Assembly: GCA_016192525.1 (NCBI GenBank) | Contig: JACPTZ010000132.1 | Location: 4,202-68,201, forward strand | Origin: Planctomycetota bacterium | GTDB lineage: Bacteria; Planctomycetota; MHYJ01; JACPTZ01 | Direction: 5' to 3' | DNA length: 64,000 nt | Shown here: positions 8,082 through 63,167 of the stretch, one piece after another | Layout: the number at the start of each line of letters is the position of its first letter | How positions within the stretch are numbered: position 1 is the stretch's first letter | The notes under the pieces: generated by a model | What the model saw: only the letters and a program-made list of their open reading frames with translations | Told to the model about the DNA's origin: nothing | The model's database searches: none | Made by a program: the position numbers and the translations under genes

Positions 8082-8120
8082 AAGAAACAGAGGAAACAAC
8101 GGAAACGGAGGCCGTCAGGG

Positions 8121-8340: not shown

Positions 8341-8449
8341 TGACGGAAGCAGATTCCGTAACAACGGCTGAGGCAACTGAGAAGGTAAACGAATCCTGGA
8401 GCAGAGGGACCGGAAGAGCACAGCGGGTGACGGAGTTTCGGACCGGCGG

Positions 8450-15427: not shown

Positions 15428-15559
15428 GTCATCCTGAGCTCGCCCGCCTCCGGTCGGCGGGCGAAGCGAAGGATCACCAGCCTCGGCCCGGTCTGGGCGA
15501 TTCCGCGGACAAGCCCGGCGATCCTTCGCCTCGCCCCGTGGGGCGAGGCTCAGGATGAC
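15428..15559. repeat. 132-nt nested-palindrome intergenic element (REP/MITE-like or structured RNA)
   Basis: The outer arms GTCATCCTGAGC (15428-15439) and GCTCAGGATGAC (15548-15559) are complementary. The inner arms GAAGCGAAGGATC and GATCCTTCGCCTC are near-complementary (11 of 13 positions). There are also two small hairpins, GCCCGCC-TCCGGTC-GGCGGGC and GCCCC-GT-GGGGC. The right arm contains the stop codon of the 15550-19023 gene. Confidence 0.65.
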
Positions 15560-18500
15560 AGCCCAAAGGGCGAGCGCCGGCGAGTTCGGAGGGATATTGA
15601 CATCCCGAGGGCCGCGAGTGCAAGCCAAAGAAGTGAGCTGCCGGCCGGTCCGGATCCGGTCGTTTCGACCAGACAGCCTCCCCCGCTTCCTCCTCCGCCG
15701 TCTCCGCCGGAAACAGTCCCTCCCGTGGACGAGTCCGAAGAGGTGGAGGCGGCCGGGGCGCCTGTGGCGGAGGTGGAAGCCGCCGGAAGGGGCACGCCGA
15801 TCCCGCCGGGGTCCACGATCACCCCATTCGCCGCGCCGTCCGCATCCTCTGGTCCGCCGTCGGTGAGCGTAAGCGTGACTGCGTTGTCTCCGTCGCCCAG
15901 CCCGGAGGCGCCCGCAAAAGTGGCCCAGCCGGTGGTGAATTTCAGATATACGGCGTTGGAGGGAATGTTCGTCGAGGCGTCATAGGTGACCGTCACCGTG
16001 ACGATCGGCGCCCCGCCGGTGTTCACGTTGAAGCGGAGGAGCCCCAGCGGCATCGTGTAGCCGGAGGGTCCCCCCCCCGTCGCCGACGTATTCTCGAGCG
16101 GCGTGGAGTACCCCGCGGTGACGACCCGCGAAAGCGTCGCCCCGGGCGTCGAGGTCCCGATCACGATCGTATCTCCGGCGAGGTCGGAGAGCCCGAGGGC
16201 GTCGGCCTCACTTTCGGAGAGCGTGAAGTCGAGCGTCGCGGCGTCGCCCTCCGTGGCTGCAGACTCCAGCGCGTTCACGATGCCGTCTCCGTCGGAGTCG
16301 ATCGGCGCCGCCGGGTCCGACCCGATCTCTGTCGCGTCGGTCGCCCCGTCGCCGTCGGTGTCGGCCGATTCGGGATCGGTTCCGATCGCGATCTCGTCCG
16401 CGTTCAGGAGGCCGTCCCCGTCGCTGTCCGCCCCTGCCGGAATGGGGCTGGTGGCGGCGAACTCGGTGTTGCCGTAGGCCCCGACATTGACGCGGTCGCC
16501 GTTGTAGTAGGGCTCGAGGTTGTAGGGATCGGCCGGGTCTCCGGCGTCCACGGTGGGGGAAGCGCTCTGTTCGCGATAGTCCCCGGGCACGAACAGGGGG
16601 GGAAGCGAGATCGAGCCGGGATCGGCGGTGAGTCCATCGTAGTCGGCCGTCCCGCTCGCCACGACGTCGTTGTAACGCAGCGTCGCGAGAGGCGCCGCCG
16701 GGGCATCGGCCCGGATGCCGTAGAGACCGGCTCCCGAGACCAGGACGTTCCGGATGGCGCTCTGCGCATCGGACAGATCGATCCCGATGCTTCCCGCGAG
16801 CGGGGCCGACCAGACGACACTCAGATGGTCCAGCTCGACATCGGCGCCGTTCGAGGCGCGCACCCCGACGGCACAGTCGAGGAAGACGACGTGACGCGCC
16901 AGCGCCACGCCTCCATCGGCCTCCAGCCCGACGGCGGCATTCTGCACGGTGACCTGTTCGAGACGGGCGGGGTCGCCGCTGGAAGAGGTCACCGAGAGGA
17001 CGGCGCCGGCCATCCCGCGACCGTCGAGATAAGTCGAGTGCGGATTCACGCCGGCGAGGGTGACCCCTTCCGGCAGCGAGAGCCCCGTGAGGAACCCGTA
17101 GGTGCCCGCGTTGAGCCGGACGGTGTCTCCGCTGGAGGCCGCCGCCAGGGCGGCCGCAATCGAGGCATAGGCCGCACTCCCGCCGCCGGAAATCTCCAGC
17201 AGAACGGAAGGCATCGGAATCACGGTCGCATACAGGGCCGTGCTCGGGAGCCCGCCGGTGTCGACGGCGACCAGCGAGAAGTCGTACGCGACATTGTTCG
17301 ACAGCCCGCTCCAGGCGTACGTCCCGGAGGATCCCACATCCACGGCCGGGCCGTACGCCCCGGTTCCGCTGATCGCCACGGCCGCCTCGTAGTGGTCGAT
17401 ATCGAACGAGGGGCTCGCGCCCCAGGTCAGGACGGCCCCCCCATCGGCCGGATCGGCCACGAAGGAAGCGGGCGGGAGTGACGGCAGATTCACCCCGAAC
17501 GTCTGCGGGACGGAGGGGGGGGACGCCGCGCCGTTGGAATCGATGGCCCGAACCGCCCACACCACGGCCGCCCCGTCCCCGAAGGGGCCGAGGGCGATGC
17601 TGGTGAGCGACGTCGGAGAGGACTCGGTGAAGTCGAACAGATCGCCGTCGTCGTCGTGGCGGACGACGTACTCGACGGGATCCCCGTTCGGATCGGTCAC
17701 CGGGTCCCAGCTCAGCGTGACGCCGGGAGTCCCCAGGACGACACCGCCGGTGGGCGAGAATCCGCTGGAAGGGGGAGGCGGGGCGGCATTCGCGCCGGCG
17801 AAGGCGTAAAGCGACCCGCTGCGGGTGGCGACGAACACCTTGCCATCGGCAATCGCCGGCGAGCACCCACAGGGCATGTCCAGAGCGAACGACGCGTCGA
17901 GCGCCCCCGTGGCCAGGTCGAAAACGAGGAGGGCGGGCGTGTTCTGGGCGGCCAGGAAGAGGTGCGTGGTACTGAGTACGGGAGGGACAAGGGCCCCCTG
18001 CACCGGCTCCGTCCCCACGATCTTCGCCCACCACAGGAGGGCTCCCGAAGCGGCATCCCTGACGAAGAGGATGAGGTCGGTGAAGCGAACATCCCCGGCC
18101 AGATAGGCCACGCGACCGAGCGCGGAGGCGGGCGAAGAGGCGTGGACGTCCCCCCAGACGGGCGCTCCCTCCGGATTGTCGATGGCCACGTCCCAGAGGG
18201 GGGAGCCGTCGGCGAGGGACCGGGCATAGAATCTCCCATGCCCCTTTCCCGGCACGAAGAAGGCGCGTCCGTCGAGGATCGACGGGCTGGAAGCATAGAG
18301 CATCCCGCCGGAGGGAACATTCCAGAGCGGGGCGCCGCTCACCGCGTCGAGCGCGTCGACAGATCCGGCATTTGACCCGATGATGACCTTGCCGCCGGAC
18401 ACGGCGGGGGAGGAATAGCTGACTGTCTCCAGCGGACGGGTCCAGAGCGTGCTTCCCGTGGCGGTGTCGATGGCGAGGAGATCGGGAAGCGGGAATCCCG

Positions 18501-19023: not shown

Positions 19024-19070
19024 GTCTGGCCTCTCACCGATGCCCCGCCGCCGATTCCTGCGCCGGTCCC

Positions 19071-22000
19071 TCAGGGACCGTCTGCGGTCCGGTCCACATA
19101 GTAGATAGTCCCGTTGCTCGAGCCGACGATGACGAAGTGCTTGTAGCCAAGCCCTCCCGAGGCCGGCACGAAATAGTCCATCGCTACATCGCTCATCTTG
19201 TCGGTGGGCGCCCCCAGCTGATAGGTGGCCACGGTCGTCGGCGCGCCGGAAATGTCCACCACGAACAGCTTCCCGCCGTTGTTGGGGACATAGATCACGT
19301 TTCCATTCCGATAGACCCCCCCCTCAATCGGGGTGCTGTCGGTCGGGCCCCCCGGCCGGTACCGGGGCTGCAAGACGGCCGCCTGAAAGCTGAGTCCATA
19401 GAGATATCCGTAGCTGTCGGCGAAGTGCACCTGCCCCCAGAAGATGTCGGCCAGCCCCGTGACCGCCCCGATGTCATTGGGAGAGCCGGGAGCGTACGGC
19501 CAGTTGTAGCCGGCGTGGCCCGAGGCCACACCGAAATCCCTCAGATCGGTCGTCGGATAGGGAAGCGACGCCGCGTACTGCTGTCGTCCGTCCACCACGT
19601 GGAATTCGCTCCCGGTCGTGCCGACGAAGGCGGCTCCCGAGGAGCCGACGACGATGGCCGCGTTCACCGGGGCGTCCGTGATCGCGGTCATCTCAGGTCC
19701 GAGCGGGACCTTGACCTCGACGCCGTAGAGCGTGTTCGCGCCGATGAACATCCTCCACGGGAGCGTCAGCGTGTCGATGGCGGGAGCTGAGGCCACCGGC
19801 GAGGTCGGCGCGTTGACGAAGAAATACTGGGTGGGATCCGCGTGCACGCCGCTGTTGGCGGCATGGACCGAGCCGATCCCCGACACCCCGGCGAGCCTGG
19901 GCGAGCCCTTCACCGTGCTTCCGGTGGTGTGCTTCCGGGCCTTGACGGAGGTCCCCAGGGCGTGCGCCAGGGTCAGTCCCGAAACCCCGGTGAACCTCGG
20001 GGTGGGCGAGGTCGTCTTCCCCGTGTACGTCACCACCTCCTGACTCCCGCCGGTGTCGACCCAGAGGCTCCCGGAAGCGGCAAAGCCGGTGACGCCGACG
20101 ACCTGAATCACGGCATCGGAGGGATTGAGTGCCACCGACGTCGTCGTTTCATAGAGCCCGCCGCTGATTCCGGTGAATTTCGCCGTGGGGACCGATTGCA
20201 GTCCCGTGTACGTGACCGTGGAGACGGTTGAGCCCGTAGTGACGGTCATTGATCCCGAGGGAGGGTATCCGCTGACCGACACGACGGACAGTTCCGTGTC
20301 CGCGGGCAAAAGGTCCGCCGTGGTGGTGGTCGAGGGCGAGACATATCTGTCCGTATAGGTGACCACGTCGGCGGAGGCGCCGTCCATGATCCGGATCGTC
20401 CCGGCGCTGGGGAAACTCGTGACCGTATTCATGACAATCTCGGTGGCCCCGGGATTCGCCGGCAGACTGAGGGAACCGGAGGGGGCGCGGTAGGCGAACA
20501 ACCCGGCATCCGCCCCCTGGGACCCGCCGAAGAAGATGAAGTGGTCGCCGGCGGCATAATAGGCGTTCTCGTAGTCGTTCGAGAAGGGAACCACCGAGGA
20601 GGTGATCCCGTTCCCGACATCGATCGGGTTGGTCCCCCACGCGGCCCAGGGAACAAGGGCCGCTCCGGTGTTCACCAGGGCATAGAGCATCCCCGCGTCG
20701 GTGCCGATGAAGACGAGGCGCTCCCGCGGATTCACGGGGCTGGTGTCCCAGAAGGGGAGCCCGACGACGGCGCCGTTCGCGGATGGAATCGCGAACTCGA
20801 ACATGACGTTGCCGTACCGATCCAGGACGTACACGGCGTCGTCTCCGGTCCTCTTGGAGGTGACGTAGGTGGCATACCACTCGCCCGTGTCGAGATCGAA
20901 CGCCGGCGTCACGAACAGTTGCGGCTCGCCCTGCACGGCCGGAGCCACGCTCTCGGTCCACAGAACGACGGCCTCACCCGCCTGGGCCGGGGTCTCCAGG
21001 GTGTTGTTGCTGTTGACGTCGTTCTCCAGATCGAAGGTCTCCCCGGAACGGTCGGACGCCACCATGGAGGGGAATTCAAACCGGGCGATCAGGGTGGCGC
21101 CGCCCGACACGGAGGCATTGACATTGGTCCCCGCGGCGCTGTCGAAGGTGCAGTCCGGCGCTTTGAGATCCACGACAGCCCCGGGGGCGCCGCTCCGGAG
21201 AAGCGTCAGGGCGGTCCCTCCGGCGAAGTCGATGAAGGCGATCCCCTGGAGGGTGTCGGACTGGCTGCCGGAGGTGATGACCGCGGCGGCCTCGATGCGC
21301 AGGGCCGAGCTCCCCGCGGACGAGAGCCGGAGACCGTTCACGTCGAGCGTCCCGCCGACCGTCATGAAGGGGGGGGAGGCGGGCGCGGCCAGGCTGGTGA
21401 TGCCGGCGGACGCGGTCGTGATCTGGGCTCCGATCCCCCGGAAGGGGTCGGGCACGGCGGGGACGCCCCCGATTCCGGTGAGGGCGTTCGGGCCGGTGGC
21501 CGTCCCCGTGTAGGTCACCGCCTGACCGTCCACATAGACCGTTCCGGAGGGCGGGAACCCGAGGGTGGTGCCCACCTCGATGTTCCCGGTGTTGTCGGCG
21601 GAGGAGACCTCTTCCGTGGCCGAGGTCGCCGCCGTTCGGGTCGTGCGCAGGGTGCCGTTGATCGCCACGCCCTGGCCGCCGCTGATGCGCAGCGAGGGCG
21701 CGGCGGCAGAGGTGGCATTCATCAGGAGTGTCGCCCCGGCCGATGTCGCCAAACCAGCCGCGGTGAGCGTGGTCGTCCCCAGATCCAGGGTCCCGCCCAG
21801 GATCTCGACAAGGCCGGCCGCGGTGGTGTCTCCCCCCACGGTGACGGTCCGCGCCCCGGCATTGATCTGAATCCGGCCGTACGTCGCGGGGAACAAGGTG
21901 CGGTCGGTGCTGGAGTCCTGGTAGCGGCAGAGCGAAGTCGCCGCCATCGCAAAGGTGTCGGGGGCGGTGAACGCCGAGTTCAAGTTGAGCGTCCCCGCCC

Positions 22001-25000
22001 CGGTCCAGGTCAGGCTTCCGCCGCTCCCGTTGAACGTCCCGTTGCAGGTCAGCGTACCGGTGACGGCCGTGATGGCCCGAGTCCCGCTCCCGCCGAAGGT
22101 GAGGGTGGAACCCGCGGGAACCGTCACCGTGCGCACGTCGATGTTGAGCGTCCCCTCCGTGATCGTAAGTCCCCCCGAACCCAGGGTGAGATTGCTTCCC
22201 AGCGTCACGGTCTCGGAGGACTTGCTGACCTCGAAGGCGGCGATCGGCAGCGTTCCCGGAGTCGCGGTCTGGGCGACCGTTCCGGTCATGAGAATTTTCC
22301 CGGCCGACATGCTGATGGTGCCCGTATTGGCCAAATTTCCGTAAATCGAGAGGGTGTTCGCGGCGCTGATCGTGAGAATCCCGGTGGTGATCTGCAGCCC
22401 CCGGCAGGAGCCGGCGGCATTCAGGATCGGGTCGTTGGCCACGTTGAGAATGACGGCGTCGATCGTCGAATTGGGCACGCCGTTGTCCCAGTTCAGGCCG
22501 TCGGTCCACGCGGTGCCGTTGTTGCCGGTCCATCGCGTCGGAACGTTCCAGGAGATCTTCCCGCCGGCGACGGTGTCGGCCGCGCCGGTGGTGGAGTCCT
22601 CGTCCTCGGTGGAGTCGCCGCCGCCGGTGACGAGCGACATCGTGATCGTTCCGGTGTACTCAGGGCGGCAGGAGACCGTGAACTGGGATGTCCCGTCGAA
22701 GGTGCAGCCCAGGGACGAGAGGATCTGGGCCCCGGTGTACTGAAGGTTCAGGAACCGTCCCCCGACTCCGGTCCCGGAGGTGAAGACAACATCGTCCACT
22801 GCGGTGAAGGTCGAGGCGCCCCCGAGGAGAAGCCCCGAGGCGTCCGGATAGCTCAGGTTGAGTCCGGCGATGTTGACGGTCCCGTTGAGGGTGATTCCCC
22901 ACGTCGAGGTGGCGGTGCTCGTCAGGGTCGGCTTTACCGAGCTGGCGGTGGTGGTCTGGAAGGTGCCGTCCACCTGGACGGTGGCGCCCGGGGCCAGACG
23001 CAGGAACGTCCCCCCGGTGCTCCCCGCCAGCCGGAGCGTGGCGGCGGCGGCGACGGAGAGGTCGGGCGTGGCGCCGGTGTCGGTCAACGCAACCCGGCAC
23101 ACCCCCGGCGCCGTCACGAGCAGCGTGCCGTCGCTCACCGTCAGGGCGCGATTCACATCCACGGCGCCGGAGATCGTCGCGGCGCGTCCGGTCATGTTCA
23201 CCGAGAGATTGCAGTAGGTCTCGGGGGCGATCGTGAGATCGCCGCTGGTGCGGTCGTAGAGGACGGTGCTGGAGGCCCCGGGTTGAAGGTCGCCGAGGCT
23301 CGTCAGCGGTCCGCCGATCTGCAGGGTGGCGGCCCCGGTGAGGTTGATGAGGCCGGTCCCGTTCGCATTGAGGGTCCCGTTCGAGTCGATGGTCGCCGTC
23401 CCGGCGCGGAGTTCCTGACCGGAGGAGATGGCGATCGTCCCGGCGACCGTGACGGAATTCGCCCCGAGGCTGAGCACCCCGGAGGTCACGTTCAGGTCCC
23501 CCCCGAGGGTCAGGGCGCCGGCGGTGGTGGAAATGAGCCCCGATCCGCGATTCAGCGTGAGGTGGTGATAGTTGGACGGCGCGGGGACCTGAATCTGCTG
23601 ATCCCCGGCCGCCGCGGAGCGATACGAAACCGTGCAACCCGCGAAGGAGGTGAAGGTCCCGAGGCTGGTGACGCCGTTCCGAAGGATGAGGGAGCCCGTC
23701 CCCGTGAACGTGACGTTGGCCCCGCCGGCGTTGAAGGTGCTTCCGCTGTCCACGCTCCCCCCCGCGATCTGGAGCGTGGAGCCGCCGGAGACGGTCACGG
23801 TCCCGGTCACGGCGGCGCCGTAGGCGGAGGTGGCGAGCGTGCCGCCGCCGCTCACGGTCAGATTCCCGGCCACGACGATGGCCCCGCCGAGCGTCGCGGT
23901 CCCCGCCGTCTTCGGAATGTCGAGATGGTAGTACTGGGCGACGTTGTCGACCGTCTGAGCGCCTCCGGAGTTGTATCGTACCGTCCCCTGGGAGGCGGAG
24001 AGCGATCCGAGGTCGGTGACGGGACCCCCGAGCTCCAGGACCCCGGCGCCGGAGAACGAGATTGTCCCCCCCGTCCCGTCGAACGTCCCCGAGGCCAGAT
24101 CGAGCGTTCCCGTCCCGATCGCGAGGGTGGCGATGCTCGTGACGTCGCCCGCCACGTTGACGGTGGCGCTCCCGACGTCGAACGTCCCCTGATTCACGGT
24201 CAAGCTCTGCCCGATCGACAGGGTGAGCCCGGTCGGCGCCGAGGCGACGATCCCCATGCACTGAATGATCAGGTCGTTGTACCCGGTGACGCCGTTGCGG
24301 GAAATCGTGTGGTTCGAGTCGGACCGGGCGTAGCGCACCTGCCCGGTGGACGGGGTGAGCCACACGGTGGGATCGGCGGGGAAGGTCGTCGCCGCACCGA
24401 ACGTGACGATTCCCGATCCGGTGAAGACGATCGTGGCGCCGGAGACGATGGTGCAGGCGCCGTTGAAGTTCACGACCCCGGTGCTGAGCGACAAGGCGCC
24501 GGCGGAGAGATTGGTGGCGCCGGACACGATGAGGGTGTTCCCGTTGACGTCGAGCGTACCGGCGCCGATCGTCAGGCCGCCGCTCACCGTCACCGTCCCG
24601 GCGGCGGTATCCGCCGTGGCGCCGCTCCGGTTGATGGTCAGGTTGTAGTACGTGATGGCCTGAACCGTCTGGACCGGTCCAGCCCCGGCATCGTAGGTGA
24701 TCTTCCCGGTCCCCGGGGTCAGAGTCCCCAGGCTGCCGGCCGTCCCGCCGAGGCGCAGTTCGCCTCCCGTGTTGAACACGATCGCCGACCCCGCCCCGGC
24801 CGTGAAACCGCCGTTCACGTCGAGGATATGGTCCGTGGCCGCCGCAAAGGACAACGTCTTGTTGTTGGCGAGCGCGCCCCCGACCGTCACGGTCCGACCC
24901 GAAGCAATGGTGGTGTTCGACCCCGGCGCGGCGGCGATGGTGACGTTGTTGAACGAGGTCGCGACGGCGGCGCCGCCGATGGTCTGACTCGTCCCGTCGA

Positions 25001-33551: not shown

Positions 33552-33613
33552 CCCGATGTCTTCTCCCCCCCGACCGATCGCGCGGGACCGGCGTCACCCC
33601 GTTCCTTCCGCCT

Positions 33614-33766
33614 TCAGGACCCCTTGGTCCCTCCCCGTCGGATGCAATTGATCCCGGCCAGCTTGCCGCAGGCGAGCGCCGCCTCCTCTCCGAGGAACTG
33701 CGTCACGCACACCGGCGGCTGGTACTCCCGGCGGCCTCGGTCCGAGGGTCGGGCGCGACCTTTCAT
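33614..33766 (-). CDS. Possible small basic Cys-containing protein (50 aa), unknown function
   Basis: The ATG at 33764-33766 is preceded by GGGAGGA (an SD 8 nt upstream). Sequence: MKGRARPSDRGRREYQPPVCVTQFLGEEAALACGKLAGINCIRRGGTKGS. No family recognised; coding status is unproven. Confidence 0.3.
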   Translation of the reverse strand: MKGRARPSDRGRREYQPPVCVTQFLGEEAALACGKLAGINCIRRGGTKGS

Positions 33767-33838
33767 GAGCGATTCCTCCCGCGGCGAATCACGATCAGGG
33801 CCAGGAGAGAGCATCCCACACCGAGCCGCGTGTGGCCG

Positions 33839-34267
33839 TCATCGGTTCGAATCCGGGTGCGCCAGCGCCTCTTCGAGCCGGCCGGCGAGCTCCGGCTTCG
33901 CCAACGAACGGCCCAGATCAGCGGCCCAGTTCCGCGAGTACTCGAGGTTCAGATTCCCGCGCTGGCGGGACAAGACGCTGAATACATCCTGCTGATCCTG
34001 TGGACGCCACCACGCCAGCTTGGACAGAATGAGGTCCTCGGCGGACGCCACAGAGAAGTCGCATCCGACGATAGTGAATTTCCGGGTGCGTTGAAAAGCG
34101 ACCTCCTCATAGGCTCGACGAATGTGATCGAATCCGACGACGAGCAGGCCCTCGAAGATGCGGATCGTCCGCTCGGGCGGAGTCCGCCGCAGTTCTTCCG
34201 CCTCCTCGCGGGCGAGGGCCTCGTTGGAAAGCGCGCGTTGACGATAGGCTTCCGCGAGATCGATCAT
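33839..34267 (-). CDS. Hypothetical protein whose C-terminus resembles nucleotidyltransferase-fold (AbiEii/DUF-type) proteins; possibly a truncated remnant
   Basis: Start moved to the ATG at 34265-34267 because the track ORF (to 34492) overlaps the upstream gene. SAEDLILSKLAWWRPQDQQDVFSVL...LNLEYSRNWAADLG resembles the C-terminal half of small NTase-like proteins. No GS...DxD catalytic N-terminus is visible. Confidence 0.4.
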   Translation of the reverse strand: MIDLAEAYRQRALSNEALAREEAEELRRTPPERTIRIFEGLLVVGFDHIRRAYEEVAFQRTRKFTIVGCDFSVASAEDLILSKLAWWRPQDQQDVFSVLSRQRGNLNLEYSRNWAADLGRSLAKPELAGRLEEALAHPDSNR

Positions 34268-34334
34268 GCCGATGTCCCTGTCGTCGGAGAGAACTCCCAC
34301 TCGCCGGGAACGCGAAGAGGGTCGCCGCTCCAAC

Positions 34335-37757: not shown

Positions 37758-37766
37758 CTATCCATC

Positions 37767-40700
37767 CTAAGGATCCACATAGTAGATCGTCCCGTTCTTC
37801 GTTCCCACGATGATCTGCGCGATCATCGGACCGAGCCCGTCCCAGTCGTCCTGAGCGGAGATGTCGGTCAGGGGGCTGGACCCCAACTGGTATCTCTTGA
37901 CGATGGTCATTGCCGCCGGAGGATCCGGAGCGACGTCCACGACATACAGGGTTCCGGCGTCGTTTCCGATGTAGGCGCGCAGCCCTGGACCGAGGTTGAT
38001 GACCAGGGGGGCCGAGCTGGCGTTCGTGCCGCCGAGGGCGAGGGCCTGACCGGGGCCAATCGCGCCTCCGGCCGCAGAAATGCGGACCAGGTACCCATTG
38101 TACGTCCCCACATAGGGGCCGTAGGAATCTCCCCAGATGTCCGGGAGCCTCTTGACGCCGCCCAGCGTCGTCACCCCGTCGATCAGGCTGACGGGGAACC
38201 CCGACACCGCCGCATAGGGCCGGCTCACGACGGCGTCCACCGCATAGCTGCCCGTAATCGTTCCGATTCCCGTAAACCGCGGCGTCGGACTCGACGCGAT
38301 GCCGGTGTAGGTAATAACCTCCCCGCCGATCGACAACTGGCCGGACGACGGCCAGCCCGCGGTGTCGGCCACCTCGATGGTCCCGTCGCCGCCGACGCTC
38401 TGATCTGCCGAACTCACGGCTTCATCGGTATCGGTGCTCGTGGAGATCCGGGCATCCAGGCCGACGAACTGCCCGACGAGGGAGGCATCGAGCTTGTCGT
38501 ACGTGCCCGCATAGACCCGCCCGTCCGTGCCGCGGTACGCGATGGGGGCATCGATGATCTTGTCGTCGGCGCCGCCGGAACTTCCCCAGCCGGCCGTGAA
38601 GTTGAATCCGGCGGACGAGAGCTCCCCTCGGGCGCAGTCGATCGCCGCATTGGAAGCCCCCATCTGGACCAGCCAACTGGTGCGAATGCCCGCGCTGTCG
38701 ACGGCCGGCGCGGCGCCGAGGGACGAGAAACTGGCGCCGGCGTTCAGATAGGGACCCGACGCGGCCGGATCCGATCGCTGTGTCTGGTAGGTGGCGCCGC
38801 CGCCCCAGACGAAGTCCGGATTCACGATGGCCCCGTCCGGGACATCGATGAGACGCAGGCAAAGCGCGAACATGTTGCGGTCCGGATCCGTGCCGGCATC
38901 TCCTCCGTCGGGCACCTCCCCACCGAACATCATGTGATACCCGCAGCTGTTGCCCTCGATAAGGCCGATGATCGCCGTCGAGATCTTCGTCACGGGATAG
39001 CCGGTGAGGTCCCAGGCCTTGGCGAGGGTGAGGGTGAGCGTGGCCGGAACATACTCGAGCATGAGCAGCCATCCGCCCTCGGTCCCGATGAAGGCGACAT
39101 TCCGTGTCTTGGCGCTCCCGACGGGGGAACTGCTCGCCTGGGAACCGCTGATATTCGTCACCCCGGTCAGTCGCTCAGGAGCTGTATCCAAACCGGAGTA
39201 ATAGACCAGGACGTCCCCGACGAAGGCCGCCCCGCCCGAGGGATCAAACCCCGCGGTCGAAGTCACTTCGATGTCGCCCTCGGTCCCGTCCGGATCGGCT
39301 GCTCCGCCCGCCAGGTCGGCGGAATCGACCGTCTCCTCCGTGAACGTCGAGGCCACCCCGTCGCCGAAGTAGAGCGTGTCCCACCAGACCAGCCCCGCCA
39401 GCGCCCCGTACGTGGCGTCCGAAACGGTGACCTGACCGATCACCTCACCATCTATGTCCAGCAGGTAGATAATGTCGTCGCCCGCGATGCGCTGAACGGC
39501 GTAGGTCCCCAAGAAATCGCCGGAGTCCAGGTCGAACGCGCCCGACGGAAAGAGCTGGTTCTCCCCGAGCACTTCGTCATTCCCGCGCGGGACCCAGTAC
39601 ACGACCCCTCCCCCGCCGTCCGAGATCCCGTCGTCGTCCGCGTCGTCGTCGCTGTCGTTGGCCTCTCCGGAGCCGGGGCCGTTGGCCGTGTCCGCGGCAT
39701 CGTCCTCGAAGGTGAGGCGCAAGTCGGAGCCGAGGGCGGGGTCGCTTACAATGACGTTCTTTCCGCCTGCAAGGAACGAGTCGTCGAAATAGCAGCGCGA
39801 ACAGAAGAGGCTCAGCGCCGCCGATTTCGTCACCCTGAGATGCGCGCCGCCGGCGGGCGCGTTCAGGAACCGGACCCGGGCGAGAGAGGTGAACGTCCCA
39901 CACTGGTCCAGGAACATTCCTGTGGCGTTCGGGGAGTTGAAATTGAGTCCGTTGATGTTGACCGTCCCGGTCGACGCCACCGAGAACCCGAAGCGGTCGG
40001 TATTCGGAATCGCGCCCTGGACGGTGGGCCAGTCGAACCAGTCGCCGGGATCGACGGTGGAGGTCTGGATCGTGCCGTTCACGGTGACCGCCTTGGTGTT
40101 CCAGATCGCGAGTACGGGCCTTGAAGCGGCGTCATCGGTCAGGTCCCTCATACGGAGGGTGGCGCCGGCCGAGACGGTGAGAGAGTCCTTGAGCGTCAAG
40201 ATCGCGGTGCCGAGGTCGAGAGTGCCACTGAGGACCCTCAGGAGCCCGGGCGCGTCGACGGTCGAATCGCCGGCAAGGGTGGCCACGACGCCGGCCGAGA
40301 CGCCGATATCGAGTTTCCCGTAGGTTGCTGTCCCCACGACGCAATCGGCCGTCTGGGAGTACAGCACCGTTCCCGACCCGGGCACAAAGGAGGTGGCGGC
40401 GAGCGGCGAAGTCACCGTGCACGTCCCGGCAAACTCCAGCGTTCCCACTCCGGTGAACTCGAGAGTGCCGTTCGCGCCGTTCCAGGCGCCGCCGACCGAT
40501 AGCGTCCCGTCCCGGATACGGATGATCCGCGTCCCGACGGCGCCGTAGGAGACGATTCCGCTCACGGTCGTCATCCCCGACCCGCGTTCGAGGATGCCGC
40601 CGTTGACCGTGAGGTTGCCGGTGATGCCGGGATCGCCGATCGGCGTTACGGTCTGTGTGGTGTCCGAGAGATCGAGCATGAGGCTGGGAAGGTCGTCCCC

Positions 40701-52700: not shown

Positions 52701-55700
52701 CGTCGTGTCCGACAGATTCGTCGCCCCCGTCACCGTCAACGTGTTCGCCCCGACATCGAACCCCCCGTCGCTCACCGTCAGCGCACCGGCCACCGCGGTC
52801 GACCCGCTCCCCAGCGTCGCCGTCCCTCCCGTCTTCGCGATGGTCAGGTTGTAGTACTGCGTCACCGCGTCCACCGTCTGGTCCGCCGTCGAGTCGTACA
52901 CCACCGTCCCCGCCGTCGCGTTCAGCGTCCCCAGGTCCGTCACCGAGCCGCTCAGATACAGCGCCCCCCCCCCCGACGCGAACATGAGCGTCCCTCCCGT
53001 CCCGTCGAACGTCGATCCCGCCGCCAGATCCACCACCCCGCTCCCCGCCCCCGTCCCGAGGTTCAACTTCGAGGCATTCGTCACCCCCCCCGCCACGTTC
53101 ACCGTCGCCGTCGTGACATCGAACGTCCCCTTGACGATGGCCAGGGCGCCGCCGACCGTCAGCGTGAGTCCCGCCGGGGCGGACGCCGTGACGTTCGTCG
53201 GCGTGTTCTGCGTCTCGATCGCCAGGTGGTTGTATCCCGTCGCGCCGTTCCTCGAGATCCCGAACGAGGCGTCGACCCGGTTGAACCGAATCGTCCCCGA
53301 CCCGGGCGTCAGCCACACCGTCGGGTCCGCCGGAAAGGTCGCCGCCCCTCCGAAGTCCACCCGGCCCCCGGCGAACGCGCCGAAAACGATCAACGCCCCC
53401 GCCTGGATCGTGCATGCCCCATTCAGGTCGAGCACGCCGGCGGAGACCCCGTCCGATACCGTCACCTGCGCGATCGGGGCCCCCCCGTTGTCCGACAGGA
53501 GCGCCGATCCATCCACCTTCAGCGTCGCCGCGTTCGTCGCCAAGTCCAGCATCCCGTTGCTCACCGTCAGCGTCCCGCCCACGCCGACCGTCAGCGTCCC
53601 TGCGTTTGCCGTCGCCGTCCCGCCCGCTTTGTCGATCTTGAGGCTGTAGAACGTGAGGGCCTCGACCGATTGCGCCCCGCCCGAGTCGTAGGTAATCGTC
53701 CCCGATCCGGCTGTGAGCGACCGCAGGAGGGCGCTTCCGCCCAGACGAAGTTCCCCGCCGGCGGTGAAGACGACGGTGCTTCCCACGGCTCCATCAAATG
53801 GCCCGTTGACGTCGAGCAGGTGGTTCGAGGCGTTCGCGAAGGTGAGGGTGCCGTTGTTGGTCAGGGTGCCGTTCACCGCGATCGTGAGCCCCGAGGCGAT
53901 GGTCGTGTCGGAGTCGGAGGCGATCGTCACGCTGTTGAATGACGTGTTGACGGCGCCTCCGATGACCTGCGTCGCCGACGACGGCGGATCGAACGTAAAG
54001 AGCGACGACCCGCCGGACGTGACGGAATCGAACGTGCCTCCGTTGTGCGTGAAATCCCGTCCGATGTTGACGGTCGCATTCCGGGTGTAGTACGTCCCCG
54101 CCCCCGCGCCAAGAATGAAGTCCCGTGTCAGGTTGATCGTCACGTTCGTCGTGGCCGGGACGGCGTCGCTGTCTAGATTGCCGGTCGAGAGGGTCAGGTC
54201 GTTCGTGACGTTGAGCGTCCCGCCATCAGGGACGGTGGCCGTGACTCCGGCGGCTTTCCCGAGGGTCAGATTGTAGTAAGTGGTTCCAGCGGTCAAGATC
54301 GTCGCGTTCGCGCCGCCATCGTAGATGAACGTCCCCGTCGAGGCGGTGAAACTCCCCAGACGGGTGACGCTGCTGGAGGCGCGGATCGTGCTCGTCCCCA
54401 CGCACGTAAGGAAGTCCGTCGGGGCGGCGGTGCTGATGTTGATGTCTGCGTTGGCGTCGAACGTGCCGGTGCCGATCCTCAGGAGGGCCGCGGCGCCTCC
54501 GTCCGGGCTGGTCGTCGCGCCGTTCACCGTGAGGGTGACGCTTCCGACGTTGAGCGTCCCCGCGGTCAGCGTGAGGGCGCCCGAAACGGTGGTATCGGTC
54601 GAGAGCGTGGCCGTCCCGCCGGTCTTGTCAACGGTGAGGTTGGTGATCCGGCCGTCGCCGGCGGCCGTGCCGCCGGGATCGAAGGTCTGGTTCGCGCTCC
54701 CGCGAAGGGAGATCGTCCCGGCGGTCATGTTCAGGACGCCGGCGCTCTCCACCGTGAAATCACCGTAGATCTCGAGCGTGTTGGCGGCGCTGATGGTCAG
54801 GCGCCCATTCGTGATCTGGAGCGACTTGCACCCGCCGAGCCAGACCTGGGCCCCGGAGGTGTGAGCGGCCGCAGTAGTGTAGTTCACGCCGCGCACCAGC
54901 CCGGTGAAGGTGGTGGCCGTGGTCCCGGTGTAGCGCATCGCCTCCGAATCGATGAGCAGCGATCCCTCCGCCGGGAAACCGGCGGTCGAAACAACCGTCG
55001 CGGTGCCGCCGCCGATCGTCAGATCGGCCGTGAGCGAGGTCGAGGCCACCGTGATGTTCAGCGTGGGGTCGTTCACCTTGTCGTCGATCCGGACGTTGTC
55101 GTTGGCCGTGGGAACGGCCCCCGTGCTCCAGTTCTGGCGGGTTCCCCAAGCCGTGCTGTTGGCTCCGGTCCAGAGTATCGCCACTGGCCAGGTGATCTCG
55201 CCCGGATTCACCGTCCCCGGGTTCTCGCTGTCGTTCTCGTAGGTCGCCCCCGAGCCGGGGCCCGTGGCCGAGAGCAGTTCGATGCCGCCGGTGAAGTCGA
55301 TTCCGGCGGAGGCCACGTTGTACTGGGGCGGGGCGGCGAGGGGATTGACCGAGGTGAAGGAGCAGTCGGAGAACTGGTACTTCGTCACGAGTCGCACCGC
55401 GGCGCCGGAGTTGTGGGCGTCGGCGGCCGTCCCGTTCACCCCGCGGGTCACCCCCTCGAAGGTCCCCGCGGTCGTCGAGGAGTAGTTCATCTCCTCAGCG
55501 TCGATCCGCAGGGTGCCCGACGAAGGAAAAGAACCCGTGGACGTGGCGCCGATCGTCGTGTCGGTAGCCAAAATCGCTCCGGAGAGCGAGGTTGATCGCG
55601 AGATCCGGACGTTCAGAAACGACGTGTAGCCGTAGTTGACGGCGATCGTGGCGACATTCGCGAACGCGATGCCGCCCATCACGCTCGACACCGACGAGTC

Positions 55701-58700
55701 GCCCAAGAGACGCAATCCGTCGCCGTCCAAGTATTCGATATTCAGACCGGCGAGATTGACGCGCCCGTCGTTGCGAACCGTGAAGGCGAACGAGGTCGCG
55801 GGGGCCAGCCGCGTGATCGTCGGCGTGCCGCTCGATACCGCCGAGGTCAACACGCCGTTCGCCGTGGAGGCCGTGCCGATCGAGAGCGAAGCGCCCAGCC
55901 GCAGGGTGGCCGTCCCGGCGAGGTCGAGCTCTCCCCCCCCCGTCACCTCCATCGCGCCCGTGACCTCCGTCGTGCTCGAACCCGGGAGGAGAAGCGTCCC
56001 GGCCCGCACCGTACAAACTCCGCCCACGGCGATCGTGGCCGCCGTCGAGGCCGTCACCGTCTGTCCTGAGGCATTCACCCTCAGATCGTAGTACGTCGCT
56101 GGACGCAGGGTCTGGGCCGAGGCGGTGTCCTGATAGACCACGAGGCTGCTCCCCGCGGTGAAAGTCCCCAAGCCCGTCACCGGACCGTCGAGCTCTAGGG
56201 TGGCCGTCCCGGGCGCGGGCGAGAAGTCCACGGCGCCCGCCGACGCGTCGAAGGTCCCATCGAGGTGTACCGTCCCCCCGGAGGCCTTGAGCGTGCCGTC
56301 GGCGCCGACCGTGATGTTCCCCGCCACGCTGATCCCGAGCGCGGCCAGATTCAGCGTCCCGGCCGTGACGGTGAGGTTGCCGCTGATGGTGAGGCCCCCG
56401 GCCGGCGTGGACTCCAGTCCGACGGCGCGGTTGAGCGTCAGGTTGGCGTAGTTCGACGGCGCCGGGACCAGGATCTGCTGGTCGCCGGGCGAAGTCGACC
56501 GATACGACACCGTGCTCCCCGACACAGACGTGAAACTCCCGAGGCTGGCGACGCTCCCGCGCAGCCGCAACGTCCCCGCGCCGGTGAAGGCGACGGCGCC
56601 TGTCGGCGCCCCGGCCGGCGAATCGGCGGTGAAGGCGCCGGTGACATCGAGGATGCCGGTGGCCGGCAGCGTGAGCGTCGCCCCGTCCGCGATCGTCGTG
56701 GAGCCGGACAGGGTGTTGACGGTCACCGTATTCCCGCCTACGGCGAAGACGCCCGAACTCACGGTCAGGCTTCTCTGGACCGTGAAGGTCCCCGAGGCCG
56801 TGCCGGTGCTACCTCCGCCCTTGGCGATCTCCAGGATGTTGTACGTGACGGCGCGAACGTCCTGGGCGAACGAGCCGTCGTATCGGACCGTTCCGGACCC
56901 GCCGTCTAAGGTACCGAGGCTGGTGACCGTGCCCGCGAGCCGGAGCGTCCCCGCCCCGGGGAAGTTCACGAAACCGCCGGACGCGGTGAAGGAACCGTTC
57001 GCGTCGAACACCCCGCTCGCCTGCAGATTCAGCGTCCCGCTGACGGCCGTCGAGCCGTCCACCGTGAACGTGACCCCGCTGACGTCCAGGGTCGAGTTGA
57101 CCGCTAGGGCGGATCCCGAACCGACGGTCACGGCGCCGTTCACCGTCTTCGTCCCCGTACCGGCGACCGTCAGGGAGGCGAGCGAGGTCGCCGCGGCGCC
57201 GCCGAAGTTCTGCGCCGCGCCGTCGAGCGTGACGAGCCCGGAACTCACGCTGAACGTGCCCGCGCTGTGATCGAAACTCCCGGCCAAGTTCAGGTTCTGC
57301 GTGCCCAACGTGAAGGTGCCGGTCGACGACATCGTCAACGCGCCCTCCACGTCGAGGGCGTTCCCGGCCGAGAAGTTGCCGGCGTTCTTCACCTCGAAGG
57401 CGCCGTTCACGTCGAGGGTGGCCGTTGCGCTGCCCGCGGCGGTCCCGGCGGTCTTGTCGATCGTCAGATTCCAGTAGGTGAACTGGCTCGTCGGAACCGT
57501 CTGCCCCCCCGATCCACCGAAGACAATCGTCCCGGTCGTCGCCGCGAAAGGAGTGGACGAGAGACTGGTGACTGTCCCGTCCAGGCGCAACGTGGCGTTC
57601 CCCGTGAAGGTCAGGGGCCCGGTCAGGTTGAAGTCCGAGGACGCGGTCAGCGCCTCCACGCTCCATGTCCCGGCCAGGAAGGTGAGTGACCCGCCCCCGG
57701 TGACGCTTCCGCTGGCGATCAGCCTCCGATCGGCCGCGATCTCGAGGGCGCCGGTGGAGTTGATCGTCAAGGTCCCGCCAGCGGTGACCGTAACCGCCGC
57801 GGCCGACGTGTTGACGCGGGCGGTCGCTCCCGACGCGATCGTGAGGATATTGAATGCGGTCGGGGCGGTCCCTCCGACCGTTTGCGTCGAGGTCCCGCCG
57901 AACGTGAAGGTCCCGGCGCCCGCGTCGAAGGTCCCGCCATCGTGCGTGAAGTTGCCCTTGATCGTGTGTGCGTGAGACCCGGCCGTGAAGGTCCCGGCGT
58001 CCATCTCGAACGCGCCGTTCAGGCTCATGGCCTTTCCGGCCACCAGGGTTCCCGCCTTCAGCCAGAGGAGGCCGTTGACGACCAGGTCGGCGGCCGTGCC
58101 CGTGGACGCCGTTCCGCTGCTCTTGTCGATCTCCAGATTGTTGTAGGCGATCCCGGAGGTGCGGATCGTCTGGTCCGCGGTCCCGTCGTAGGAGACCGTC
58201 CCGGTCCCCGCCCCGAAGGGCGTCCCGAGCCCGCCGGAAGGAAGGTCGGCGCCGAGCTGGAGGCGTCCCGAGCCCGTGAAATCCACGGCGCCGCCGTTGA
58301 GGTTGAAGGTCCCGTTGGCGTCGACCGTGCCGGACCCGATCTTGAGGGTCCCCGTCCCGCCTGAGGTTTGCAGGGCGCCATCGACGCGAAGGGTGGAGGA
58401 CCCGACATCGAACGTGCCGAAGGTCATCGTCACGTTGCCCGCGACGGTCATGTTCGCGAGCAGGACGGCCACGCCGCCGGGCTTGTCGATGACCAGATTC
58501 GCGAGGCGTCCGTCTCCGGGGGCGGTCCCGCCGGGGTCGATTCCCCGCTGATCGCCCTCCCCGGAGAACGTGATCGTCCCGGCGGTCATGTTGAGGGCCC
58601 CCGCCGCCGCCACCGAGAGGTCGCCGTACACCTTGAGGGTGTTCGCGCTGTTATTGAGGGTGAGCGTGCCGGTGGGGATGCTGAGCGAGGCGCATTCCCC

Positions 58701-63167: not shown

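Follow-up and report, generated by a model that had tools for sequence, protein, structure and literature searches.

A gene pair encoding a predicted secreted beta-solenoid fibre and a tail-bearing beta-propeller partner, which a sequence-only reading had taken for a functional couple from its two copies in the 64,000-nucleotide stretch of Planctomycetota DNA analyzed here (the window), is conserved with tight spacing and on one strand in both Planctomycetota and myxobacteria. No Pfam or NCBIfam family and no paper in the literature that could be searched describes the fibre or the pairing, in keeping with that reading's view that the couple is not a described system, and a literature search for the pairing or for the peptide/PqqD/radical-SAM (rSAM) cassette of related loci returned nothing relevant. 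Since the fibres end in a propeller without a sorting tail and the partners carry a Cys/TM/RRR tail, we propose the partner as the fibre's anchor, and tentatively, with slightly less than even confidence, a two-component mechanism in which the surface-anchored partner docks the anchor-less fibre.

Genomic Organization of the Duplicated Pair

The four fibre and partner genes, all on the minus strand, were found in exactly the order, at the coordinates and with the spacings first noted (Table 1). Partner1 comprises 1140 aa from a GTG lying 9 nt from giant1, or 1138 aa from the ATG at 37751 selected by the gene caller, 15 nt away; the gap between giant2 and partner2 is 47 nt. Both gaps contain a purine-rich, SD-like sequence and lack a terminator, and judging from the 9-47 nt gaps here and the 4-nt overlaps in compact operons elsewhere (L002, L083 and L084), the partner gene is almost certainly co-transcribed with the fibre gene. 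The HEAT_2 gene in the window is located directly upstream of giant1. The 142-aa ORF between the modules scores 20.8 bits against Pfam DUF6036, below the cut-off of 23.6, and probably lies outside the fibre/partner system. Beyond the left end of the window the contig continues, and short Logan contigs with pyrF were retrieved.

Table 1. Genes and features of the window, in order of transcription.
Feature	Coordinates	Strand	Description
HEAT_2 repeat protein gene	63616..64000	(-)	Pfam HEAT_2 E 2e-20; 5' end beyond window
giant1	37767-63167	(-)	8466 aa; Sec signal, T/G-rich beta-helix fibre, ~7 supermodules
giant1 C-terminal region	37767..39560	(-)	very divergent family propeller with inserted phage-tail-like ~60-aa motifs
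partner1	34335-37757	(-)	PQQ_2 propeller, 2 FN3, beta-helix, TSP3, choice-of-anchor U, Cys/TM/RRR tail
142-aa ORF	33839..34267	(-)	weak DUF6036-like nucleotidyltransferase remnant; gene call also in Logan contig L131
50-aa precursor-like peptide MKGRARPSDRGRREYQPPVCVTQFLGEEAALACGKLAGINCIRRGGTKGS	33614..33766	(-)	member of the 'SLACGK...C' family
giant2 (NCBI MBI3098717, 'hypothetical protein')	19071-33551	(-)	4826 aa; beta-helix fibre, 4 supermodules
giant2 C-terminal PQQ-like-blade beta-propeller	19071..20930	(-)	~4 inserted phage-tail-like motifs
partner2 (NCBI MBI3098716, 'PQQ-binding-like beta-propeller repeat protein')	15550-19023	(-)	1157 aa; architecture as partner1
partner2 3' segment, choice-of-anchor U region	15783..16190	(-)	homogenised with partner1 34529-34930
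sigma-54-dependent (NtrC-type) response regulator	13924..15378	(-)	ortholog of the regulator closing the cluster in related loci
NTP_transf_5 nucleotidyltransferase	8450..9808	(-)	Pfam PF14907 E 9e-46

With a GC content of 68%, the window abounds in long spurious ORFs in its other frames, which would favor a reading of the giant ORFs as chance frames, or of the second module as an assembly duplicate. Both junctions, and the stretch between the modules, recur in Logan assemblies, which are independent and were built from different sequencing runs: L131 carries the 3' end of giant1, partner1, the 142-aa ORF, the 50-aa ORF and the 5' end of giant2, and L128-130 carry the 3' end of giant2, partner2 and the next gene. 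The copies have moreover diverged to ~55% protein and ~70% DNA identity, homologous proteins occur in hundreds of clusters, and the AF2 model described below is confident. Because the independent assemblies reproduce the layout and the copies have diverged, the second module is not an assembly artefact, the check that the sequence-only reading had called for, and the probability of either artefact is negligible; both are refuted.

The Fibre Proteins

The giants are concatenations of beta-solenoid supermodules of ~1,100-1,400 aa apiece, each of which in giant1 opens with 'W.G..W..NW', and how long a fibre is depends on how many supermodules it joins, with one or two found in most relatives against four in giant2 and ~7 in giant1. 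Across the family, for which an exhaustive representative search yielded 792 cluster representatives at 50% identity, sizes extend from 0.9 to 8.5 kaa and are usually 0.9-2.7 kaa; the exhaustive search was needed, as a word-indexed homologue search returned one match with the giant2 tail and six with the alignment. An AF2 model of giant2 residues 1416-2541 is an all-beta solenoid (pLDDT 87), and the top Foldseek matches of this supermodule model are all beta-helix adhesins or tailspikes (Ag43, Hbp, EtpA, TibA), at non-significant E values (best 0.14). The fibre is accordingly predicted to be a Sec-secreted right-handed beta-solenoid, and it lacks an anchoring signal of its own. Pfam detected no family in either giant except one weak G8 match in giant1, and NCBIfam none in giant2, the one giant scanned there; in the same scans no beta-barrel translocator, N-terminal TPS domain, POTRA partner or other recognisable secretion domain was found.

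Giant1 and giant2 had been described as paralogous at both ends. This is clear at the N-terminus, where identity is 55% over ~2,500 aa, and it declines to 40% through the middle; at the C-terminus the likeness is confined to 32% identity over ~200 aa and a common terminal motif, 'NGTIYYVDP'. Giant1 additionally contains an internal DNA duplication of 2.1 kb at 87% identity (44617-46712 versus 51610-53717).

By profile comparison, the C-terminal ~400-aa domain of the fibre family (Cprop) is a divergent PQQ-like-blade beta-propeller. Between the family profile and the designed PQQ-like propellers Cake8-10, E values are 1e-39 to 1e-45 (best 9e-46), and four of six members give sub-threshold PQQ_2 or Beta-prop_ACSF4 matches; single-sequence PDB searches with the window's own fibre C-termini returned no match. 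Default hmmsearch filters miss Cprop in ORFs longer than 3,000 aa, and the tails were re-run with --max. Giant2 is matched by a profile built without window sequences at E 2e-23, with both halves of the domain covered, and its C-terminus has BLAST matches to three relatives (P0121, L002up and L003up). The giant1 tail reaches E 3e-92 with window sequences in the profile; without them its pieces align in the correct order at E 0.17 (Z=1e6; ~3e-7 as a two-sequence test), so that recognition of a propeller at the giant1 C-terminus is marginal. The earlier assignment of PQQ-like propellers to the giants' C-termini as well as to the partners' N-termini is thus borne out for the family and for giant2, and marginally for giant1. 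Among the best 150 representatives listed, the Cprop match extends to the C-terminus in every full-length protein, and a sorting tail after Cprop is absent from the fibres.

Conservation of the Gene Pair

Survey of partner homologues at ~45 evaluable genome loci revealed a Cprop-ending ORF directly upstream on the same strand in ~33, a Cprop ORF nearby in another arrangement in three more, and no Cprop neighbour in about 8-9, so that, in the Planctomycetota and Polyangia MAGs, ~80% of the partner homologues that could be evaluated adjoin a Cprop-ending gene. A metagenome survey seeded with fibres found the partner directly downstream in 18 of 34 evaluable loci; it was in another arrangement in five, on three cut contigs the start of a partner was seen, and of the 16 loci lacking a partner directly downstream ~11 had none nearby. 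This second survey used Polyangia-type query sequences and is therefore biased towards that clade. Overall, ~20% of partners and ~30% of fibres lack their mate within the sequence available, indicating that the two genes need not be coupled in cis.

The question posed by the sequence-only reading, whether a giant ORF always lies upstream of the partner, is answered in the negative: the upstream protein usually measures 0.9-2.7 kaa, so that "giant" is not the conserved feature, and the 8-9 loci above have no such neighbour. What is conserved in the upstream protein is the C-terminal ~400-aa Cprop and, at the N-terminus, the 'W.G..W..NW' beta-helix architecture. Like the window, seven further loci (L017, L023, L024, L036, L049, L061 and L066) carry tandem fibre-partner-fibre-partner arrays, and at three others (L010, L039 and L122) the partner ORF continues in frame into the fibre ORF that follows.

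The Partner Proteins

Pfam and NCBIfam matches bear out the identical domain order claimed for the two partners: a signal peptide, a PQQ_2/BamB-like propeller (E 1e-32 to 1e-35), two FN3 domains, a beta-helix with weak NosD/parallel-beta-helix matches, TSP3_bac, choice-of-anchor U, and a tail comprising a cysteine, a hydrophobic stretch and RRR. The choice-of-anchor U domain (NF041766; 89.5 and 83.8 bits, cut-off 32; residues 986-1077 and 982-1073) sits directly before the C-terminal tail in both window partners, which are the only two to carry it among 17 aligned members of the partner family. The tail, which in the window reads GGGC[FL]V followed by ~20 hydrophobic residues and RRR, is present in 17 of 17 aligned partners with the cysteine invariant. 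It resembles the tails of MYXO-CTERM/myxosortase proteins (TIGR03901; e.g., TraA), in which an invariant cysteine, a TM helix and an arginine cluster likewise recur. According to PMC11980579, MYXO-CTERM proteins are exposed at the cell surface. Polyangia partner tails pass the TIGR03901 cut-off of 20 bits (28.6 and 32.2 bits), and two Polyangia partners are annotated as MYXO-CTERM proteins by JGI. The window tails fall below it (8.6 bits for partner2, no match for partner1), as do those of other Planctomycetota partners, with L001 borderline; partner1 gives in addition a weak CFI-box match of 12.1 bits (cut-off 15.9). The known MYXO-CTERM system, in contrast to the present one, has neither a companion fibre gene nor the propeller/FN3/beta-helix architecture. 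No CPBP or myxosortase-like gene lies within the 64-kb window. In L083 and L008 a generic CPBP gene with sub-threshold Mrt similarity is located 6 kb away from the module; it was considered as a sortase and dropped, its position probably reflecting just synteny between these close relatives.

The nearest solved structures to the partner propeller are BamB proteins (E 5e-14 to 1e-11), and TIGR03300 matches the partner at E 2e-32. Together with the tight coupling and one-to-one duplication of the genes and the want of a recognisable secretion domain in the fibres, this would suit a partner that acts in assembly or export, its BamB-like propeller serving as a scaffold or chaperone for passage or folding of the very long beta-helix at the outer membrane and the fibre being later released or held otherwise. 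We consider such a role unlikely. With the BamB equivalogs TIGR03300 and NF008351 the partners score 112 and 77 bits, where the cut-offs are 285 and 423, and neither window partner has a lipobox cysteine after its signal peptide. BamB (YfgL) is a ~390-aa lipoprotein, whereas the partners, whose N-terminal domain aligns to BamB structures and the PQQ_2 model, are 1140-1157 aa long and stand in no bam context; their ~700 further residues and C-terminal sorting tail suit an exposed structural protein better, and the ~30% of fibres without a partner nearby also argue against a dedicated assembly factor. Assignment to the PQQ-dependent dehydrogenases is likewise not indicated, with scores of 55.9 and 41.5 bits where the models for a full 8-bladed quinoprotein domain (TIGR03075 and related) require 480.

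Divergence of the Modules and Co-variation of the Propellers

Partner1 and partner2 are 54.6% identical in amino acid sequence over their full length. Their 3' ends, estimated by eye at 85% identity in the sequence-only reading, are indeed highly similar, and the estimate was too low: measured DNA identity is ~90% in the 3' segment, compared with 70.8% over 34529-36470. Four-fold-degenerate third positions are alike at a frequency of 0.66 in this segment and of 0.34-0.49 elsewhere, and this raised identity at synonymous sites suggests that the 3' segments have been homogenised by partial gene conversion. Among the partner domains, the choice-of-anchor U region is 87% identical and the propeller 38%, with the other domains at 55-87% and the 58-aa C-terminal tail also low at 43%. 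The fibre propeller is <30% identical between the giants, as against 55% at the fibre N-terminus, and within each protein type the propellers are the most diverged parts.

Across 51 fibre-partner pairs, Cprop distance correlates with partner-propeller distance when the partner beta-helix is controlled for (partial r 0.62, Mantel p~0.001), and the reverse partial correlation is 0.11. Divergence and co-variation of the propellers may hint at cognate specificity; the co-variation could equally be explained by the adjacency of the two propeller-coding regions on the DNA. Comparison of the fibre propeller with the partner propeller by hhalign was not significant.

A rival reading regards fibre and partner as co-regulated but physically independent surface proteins with a role in exopolysaccharide or attachment, in which, for example, the partner beta-helix would bind or cleave a glycan and the fibre would be an adhesin. 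The weak NosD/parallel-beta-helix matches in the partner are consistent with it, as are the tyrosine autokinase and Poly_export genes adjoining L083, the Glycos_transf_4 and Wzy_C genes just past the left end of the window and the occurrence of unpaired partners and fibres. Yet no catalytic family was matched above threshold, and one-to-one tandem duplication, in-frame fusions and propeller co-variation exceed what co-regulation predicts, making this reading quite unlikely.

Under the docking mechanism that we tentatively favor, the partner would reach the cell surface by sorting and remain attached through its processed cysteine tail, and would dock the anchor-less fibre, most probably through contact between the fibre C-terminal propeller and the partner N-terminal propeller. 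Every fibre would be matched to a cognate anchor of its own, and together they would form a surface fibre or adhesin of two components, ~90-170 nm long here by a rough estimate that assumes a value for the solenoid rise. Co-functional accessories would be provided by the peptide/rSAM cassette and the sigma-54 regulator discussed next.

The Wider Gene Cluster

The sequence-only reading did not mention a wider cluster around the pair. In Planctomycetota the cluster runs fibre, partner, HEAT_2, 'SLACGK...C' peptide, PqqD, rSAM/SPASM and sigma-54 response regulator, and NTP_transf_5 is found close by. Of these genes the window retains HEAT_2, the peptide, the regulator and NTP_transf_5, and PqqD and rSAM are absent within its 64 kb. 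In related loci the HEAT_2 gene lies directly 3' of the partner gene.

The 'SLACGK...C' peptides are ~45 aa long, with a basic leader, two invariant cysteines and a single ACGK; they lack tandem ACGX repeats and matched no NCBIfam model. By tblastn and HMM the window peptide, whose ATG is preceded at 7-8 nt by GGGAGGA and which has an independent gene call in L131, matches peptides adjoining PqqD and rSAM/SPASM in L001, L003, L008, L011, L083 and L084, and also the peptide of L007, where as in the window no rSAM is nearby. No curated family fits the rSAMs of the related loci, whose scores of 59.8 and 101.6 bits fall short of the 400 required for ACGX (TIGR04340/04341). The window response regulator is 53-54% identical to those following the rSAM gene in L008, L011, L083 and L084 and falls below every NCBIfam equivalog cut-off (383 bits versus 502.6 for the PEP-CTERM-box regulator PrsR, TIGR02915; AtoC and NtrC give similar scores, also below their cut-offs). 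Homologues of NTP_transf_5 adjoin or lie near the module in L008, L009, L011 and L083. Matches to the sigma-54 -24/-12 consensus upstream of fibre and peptide genes were fewer than expected by chance, with none in the relevant gaps.

These genes raise, by analogy, an alternative centred on the peptide, in which PqqD and rSAM/SPASM would cross-link it into a small subunit, cofactor or ligand of a PQQ-like propeller, with the complex of fibre and partner as holo-protein or receptor. The logic is that of QhpC/QhpD in quinohemoprotein amine dehydrogenase (QHNDH) or of PqqA/PqqD/PqqE with PQQ-binding propellers. The beta subunit of QHNDH is a propeller. The radical-SAM enzyme QhpD cross-links the small gamma subunit of QHNDH through cysteine thioethers (PMC7876137). 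In eight independent loci, the rSAM-less window and L007 included, the gene for the peptide comes after that for the partner or for HEAT_2, and in L083 and L084 overlapping genes join partner, HEAT_2, peptide, PqqD and rSAM, which together with the basic leader and the two cysteines is consistent with such a role. Nearly all Polyangia loci, on the other hand, have the pair without a cassette within 8-10 kb, the window has no PqqD or rSAM, and the rSAM belongs to no curated family; we regard the peptide-centred alternative as quite unlikely. A broader combination, in which an undescribed multi-component surface system of Planctomycetota and Polyangia would use the rSAM-cross-linked peptide as cofactor, small subunit or specificity ligand of its PQQ-like propellers, one of them tail-anchored on the cell and the other capping a 100-nm-scale beta-helix fibre, and peptide-loaded propeller-propeller docking would assemble cognate fibre/anchor pairs under sigma-54 control, is likewise a long shot.

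Comparison with Known Systems

In its predicted long right-handed beta-solenoid the fibre would resemble the passengers of autotransporters (Ag43, Hbp) and of the two-partner-secretion protein EtpA, which are the nearest folds to the supermodule model, albeit at non-significant Foldseek E values, and as in two-partner-secretion adhesins the fibre has a dedicated second gene. The fibre differs from both in having no beta-barrel translocator or TPS domain and in ending in a propeller, and the downstream partner is a soluble-domain, putatively tail-anchored propeller protein rather than an Omp85/POTRA protein. Like known rSAM/SPASM and PqqD cassettes (ACGX, TIGR04340/TIGR04341; QhpC/QhpD; PqqA/D/E), the related loci bring together a small cysteine-containing precursor, PqqD and a SPASM rSAM, here adjoining beta-propeller proteins; unlike the Qhp and Pqq systems they contain no Qhp or Pqq homologues, and the window has the peptide alone. 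The giant proteins of Omnitrophota, a phylum of the PVC group, are also very large, repeat-built, beta-helix-rich predicted surface proteins (bioRxiv 10.1101/2023.11.21.568195), but theirs have an antiparallel beta-helix, SecA-like domains and TM regions, and a conserved propeller partner and Cprop are not mentioned.

Significance

The cell surfaces of Planctomycetota and myxobacteria are complex and poorly understood, and the giant genes of these bacteria are routinely labelled "hypothetical". What is new is a recurrent fibre family without a Pfam or NCBIfam model, accompanied by a dedicated partner, whose length evolves by concatenation of supermodules from 0.9 to 8.5 kaa, together with a testable model for how an anchor-less fibre may be held on the cell. 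Lastly, the uncurated peptide/PqqD/rSAM-SPASM cassette beside PQQ-like propellers constitutes a new RiPP lead, and raises the possibility that a modified peptide serves a structural surface protein instead of acting as an antibiotic.

Organization of the Duplicated Module

An ORF map and domain searches bore out the positions, the gap lengths and the order of the partner domains proposed in a sequence-only reading, which had described a duplicated two-gene module in which each giant protein (the fibre) is followed by a propeller-containing partner; the observation itself was confirmed, and its interpretation as a functional, possibly docking, couple is partly supported. The window has a GC content of 68%, all genes relevant to the module lie on the minus strand (see table), and exact NCBI protein matches run from MBI3098702 (pyrF) through MBI3098717 (giant2), with the fibre annotated as "hypothetical protein" and the partner as "PQQ-binding-like beta-propeller repeat protein". 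The 142-aa ORF between partner1 and the peptide gene shows sub-threshold similarity to DUF6036 (nucleotidyltransferase), is also predicted by a gene caller in an independent contig, and sits where related loci carry the HEAT_2 gene. A long plus-strand ORF that terminates in a poly-Q/QQR run lies on the strand opposite the TPR gene region and intergenic sequence near 8100-8370; it is probably a simple CAG/CTG-type DNA repeat and not a gene.

Features of the window (minus-strand genes in transcription order) and of related loci (L numbers; genomes, metagenomes and Logan contigs)
Feature	Position	Strand	Remark
HEAT_2 gene	63616 to beyond 64000	-	Pfam E 2e-20
giant1	37767-63167	-	8466 aa
partner1	34335-37757	-	
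DUF6036-like remnant	33839-34267	-	142-aa ORF
SLACGK-family peptide	33614-33766	-	50-aa ORF
giant2	19071-33551	-	4826 aa
partner2	15550-19023	-	
Sigma-54 NtrC-type response regulator	13924-15378	-	
PilZ protein	13175-13537	-	E 9e-10
Ser/Thr kinase with TPR repeats	10039-12747	-	
NTP_transf_5 protein	8450-9808	-	E 9e-46
TPR protein, then UvrA		-	last
Poly-Q/QQR ORF	7091-8371	+	
~60-aa motif, giant1	aa ~2535, 2719, 6361, 7335, 7963, 8260		
~60-aa motif, giant2	aa ~3987, 4421, 4482		
~60-aa motif, example window positions	~54800-55560; ~19900-21600		
SLACGK peptide	L001:11355-11495		
SLACGK peptide	L003:13249-13413		
SLACGK peptide	L007:13628-13855		
SLACGK peptide	L008:12677-12814		
SLACGK peptide	L011:~13265-13397		
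SLACGK peptide	L083:17150-17281		
SLACGK peptide	L084:~4950-5082		
In-frame partner-fibre ORFs	L010:9893-17935; L039:1736-9226; L122:258-9035		Polyangia
Poly_export and polysaccharide tyrosine autokinase	L083:6929-9786	-	
CPBP/Rce1-like protease	L083:3546-4205; L008:1458-2108		

Partner Proteins

The two partners (54.6% identity) each begin with a signal peptide and a PQQ_2/BamB-like propeller (E 1e-32 to 1e-35) whose nearest solved structures are BamB, followed by two FN3 domains, a right-handed beta-helix closed by the motif D.GDP.D....EP..NG.RIN.GAFG.T, TSP3 repeats, a choice-of-anchor U domain (84-90 bits vs a cut-off of 32), and a tail of GGGC, a hydrophobic helix and RRR. Their homologues, ~820-890 aa long, make up one family that occurs in MAGs of Polyangia/Myxococcales and Planctomycetota. 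Identity between the partners climbs from N- to C-terminus, from 38% in the propeller through 55-62% (FN3), 58% (beta-helix) and 69% (TSP3) to 87% in choice-of-anchor U. The high similarity of the 3' ends, put at ~85% by eye, measures about 90% in DNA across the choice-of-anchor U regions (15783-16190 vs 34529-34930), and synonymous-site identity is raised in this segment (0.66 vs 0.34-0.49), consistent with homogenisation of the tandem partners by partial gene conversion in this region, together with purifying selection.

Fibre Architecture

The giants, in which T, G and A are abundant, matched no Pfam family except for one weak G8 match in giant1, and an NCBIfam scan of giant2 matched none. 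Both are concatenations of supermodules of about 1,100-1,400 aa (four in giant2, about seven in giant1), each opening with the motif W.G....W....NW..P..D that also stands right after the signal peptide. Two internal repeats in giant1, one of 2.1 kb with 87% DNA identity (44617-46712 vs 51610-53717) and one of 1.7 kb with 73% (48180-49910 vs 55626-57362), each have their second copy about 7 kb away, indicating recent segmental duplication of a segment of about 7 kb, which accounts for giant1 being roughly twice as long as giant2. AF2 modelling of a single giant2 supermodule (aa 1416-2541), with the eight paralogous supermodules as alignment, gave a confident structure (mean pLDDT 87) made up solely of short beta-strands. 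Foldseek returned no significant match to this model (best E 0.14), and the top matches were all right-handed beta-helices (Ag43, Hbp, EtpA, TibA, tailspikes and a beta-helical antifreeze protein); we therefore read the giants as putative beta-solenoid fibres. Assuming a typical solenoid rise, giant2 would be some 90 nm long and giant1 some 170 nm.

In sequence-profile comparisons, the proposal that the giants end in PQQ-like propellers held at the family level and for giant2, and marginally for giant1. A profile of six C-terminal domains matched the designed PQQ-like symmetric propellers Cake8-10 (E 1e-39 to 9e-46) and, weakly, a BamB fragment; four of its six members gave sub-threshold Beta-prop_ACSF4 and PQQ_2 matches, and eight blade motifs (hyd-Y/F-x-G-x-x-x-G-x-hyd-Y) can be discerned by eye in compact homologues. 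With a profile built without the window sequences, the giant2 C-terminus matched over both domain halves (E 2e-23) and that of giant1 only marginally, while single-sequence PDB searches with either tail gave no propeller match. Both tails are broken up by insertions of a ~60-aa motif, G[ST]L.ID.E.M.Y...T...FTGL.RG..GT.A..H..GA.V, present in about nine copies in the giants, some of them interrupting the C-terminal propellers. Among PHROGs, this motif matches phage families of the baseplate wedge, tail and tail fibre (phrog_2885 at 6e-9, along with phrog_708, phrog_1101, phrog_11439 and phrog_4406); it matches nothing in Pfam or among PDB sequences.

Conservation of the Pairing

A partner-seeded survey with custom HMMs covered 76 genome loci, about 45 of them with enough upstream sequence. 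A propeller-ending ORF lies directly upstream on the same strand in about 33 of these ~45, and in another arrangement in 3; 8-9 have none. In the reverse, fibre-seeded survey of JGI metagenomes (Polyangia-type queries only; 34 evaluable loci), the partner is directly downstream in 18, with its start visible on three further cut contigs, nearby in another arrangement in 5, and absent in 11. The upstream protein measures 938 aa (L002), 1329 aa (L083) or 2073 aa (L003); in L007, L009 and L042 the end of the flank truncates it after more than 3,300 aa. An exhaustive search with the C-terminal domain recovered 792 representatives at a threshold of E<=1e-3, of which 167 reached E<=1e-30, the longest fibre being 5,831 aa; among the 150 representatives listed, the match extends to the C-terminus in every full-length protein. 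Thus the couple is real and adjacency frequent; contrary to the expectation of a giant ORF always upstream, adjacency is not universal, and gigantism is a lineage-specific expansion. Further support for a functional couple comes from recurrent tandem fibre-partner-fibre-partner arrays (L017, L023, L024, L036, L049, L061, L066) and from three Polyangia loci where no stop codon follows the MYXO-CTERM RRRR end of the partner and a single reading frame carries on into the following fibre's signal peptide, representing either natural partner-fibre fusion or programmed read-through.

Wider Cluster and SLACGK Peptide

In the compact Planctomycetota loci L083 and L084, neighbouring genes overlap by 4 nt in the order fibre, partner, HEAT_2, 43-46-aa peptide, (methyltransferase), PqqD, rSAM/SPASM and sigma-54 response regulator, and an NTP_transf_5 gene is nearby; the cluster is also found in L001, L008, L011 and the Polyangia-lineage L003. 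The peptides (~43-60 aa) share a consensus from eight independent members, comprising a basic N-terminus (MKKKKRPY.KPT), an EKV[YF]E leader, a SLACGK core and a second invariant Cys ~8 residues on, and match no NCBIfam model. The window peptide gene has a Shine-Dalgarno sequence (GGGAGGA), and a gene caller independently predicts the same ORF in a Logan contig. The cluster-closing regulators of L008, L011, L083 and L084 share 53-54% identity with the window response regulator, and NTP_transf_5 recurs beside the module in L008, L009, L011 and L083, so that it may belong to the system.

The peptide adjoins PqqD and rSAM/SPASM in most loci and stands without them in the window and L007; neither is detectable within the 64-kb window, and the organism may encode them past the HEAT_2 gene or at another site in its genome. 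The rSAM proteins of related loci fall in no curated NCBIfam family: the best-scoring models, heme-related and mycofactocin, are all far under cut-offs, and the ACGX-system model, whose cut-off is 400, gives 60-102 bits. By analogy with QhpC/QhpD (PMC7876137), the system might instead centre on the peptide as part of a holo-protein; in almost every Polyangia locus the pair occurs with no peptide-PqqD-rSAM cassette, which argues that the cassette is accessory and the fibre/partner pair the core.

Polysaccharide genes flank the cluster in L083, where Poly_export and autokinase genes lie divergently upstream of the fibre, and in the window's own organism, where Glycos_transf_4 and Wzy_C lie just past pyrF (Logan contigs L085/L086, left of position 1). 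The related Planctomycetota loci L083 and L008 also encode CPBP/Rce1-like intramembrane proteases (66% identity), located upstream at a distance of about 4-6 kb from the fibre gene, with weak, sub-threshold matches to myxosortase-family models; the window contains no such gene.

Proposed Function

The fibre is a secreted, anchor-less beta-helix protein with a terminal propeller; the partner, encoded alongside it, has a separate propeller and ends in a Cys/TM/Arg tail. Polyangia partner tails score 28.6 and 32.2 bits under the MYXO-CTERM model and pass its cut-off of 20, whereas those of the window fall below it; MYXO-CTERM proteins are displayed on the surface of the cell (PMC11980579), and the window carries no myxosortase-like gene. 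We propose that the partner would hold its cognate fibre at the cell surface, acting both as its anchor and as its docking site, the whole working like a two-component surface adhesin with a MYXO-CTERM-type anchor. The propellers are the most diverged domains in both proteins, and their distances co-vary across 51 pairs (partial r 0.62, Mantel p~0.001, controlling for the partner beta-helix; reverse control, partial r 0.11), although a shared recombination history could yield the same co-variation, since the stretches that encode the two propellers are direct neighbours on the DNA. The BamB resemblance of the partner propeller would also suit an assembly factor, and the occurrence of unpaired members in both families an independent glycan-active surface protein; tested for membership, the system fell outside BamB, and likewise outside quinoproteins, autotransporter/TPS adhesins, the ACGX system and PrsR, as did the window under the MYXO-CTERM HMM itself.

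Full-text searches found literature on MYXO-CTERM and on planctomycete/Omnitrophota giant genes and none on the pairing or cassette. We rate the system as belonging to a known kind, in which a surface fibre has an anchor of its own, with a modest chance that the peptide link turns it into something more unusual. The finding is best restated as a conserved fibre/anchor module of variable fibre length, duplicated in the window with fibres enlarged to 4.8 and 8.5 kaa, within a sigma-54/RiPP-type cluster.
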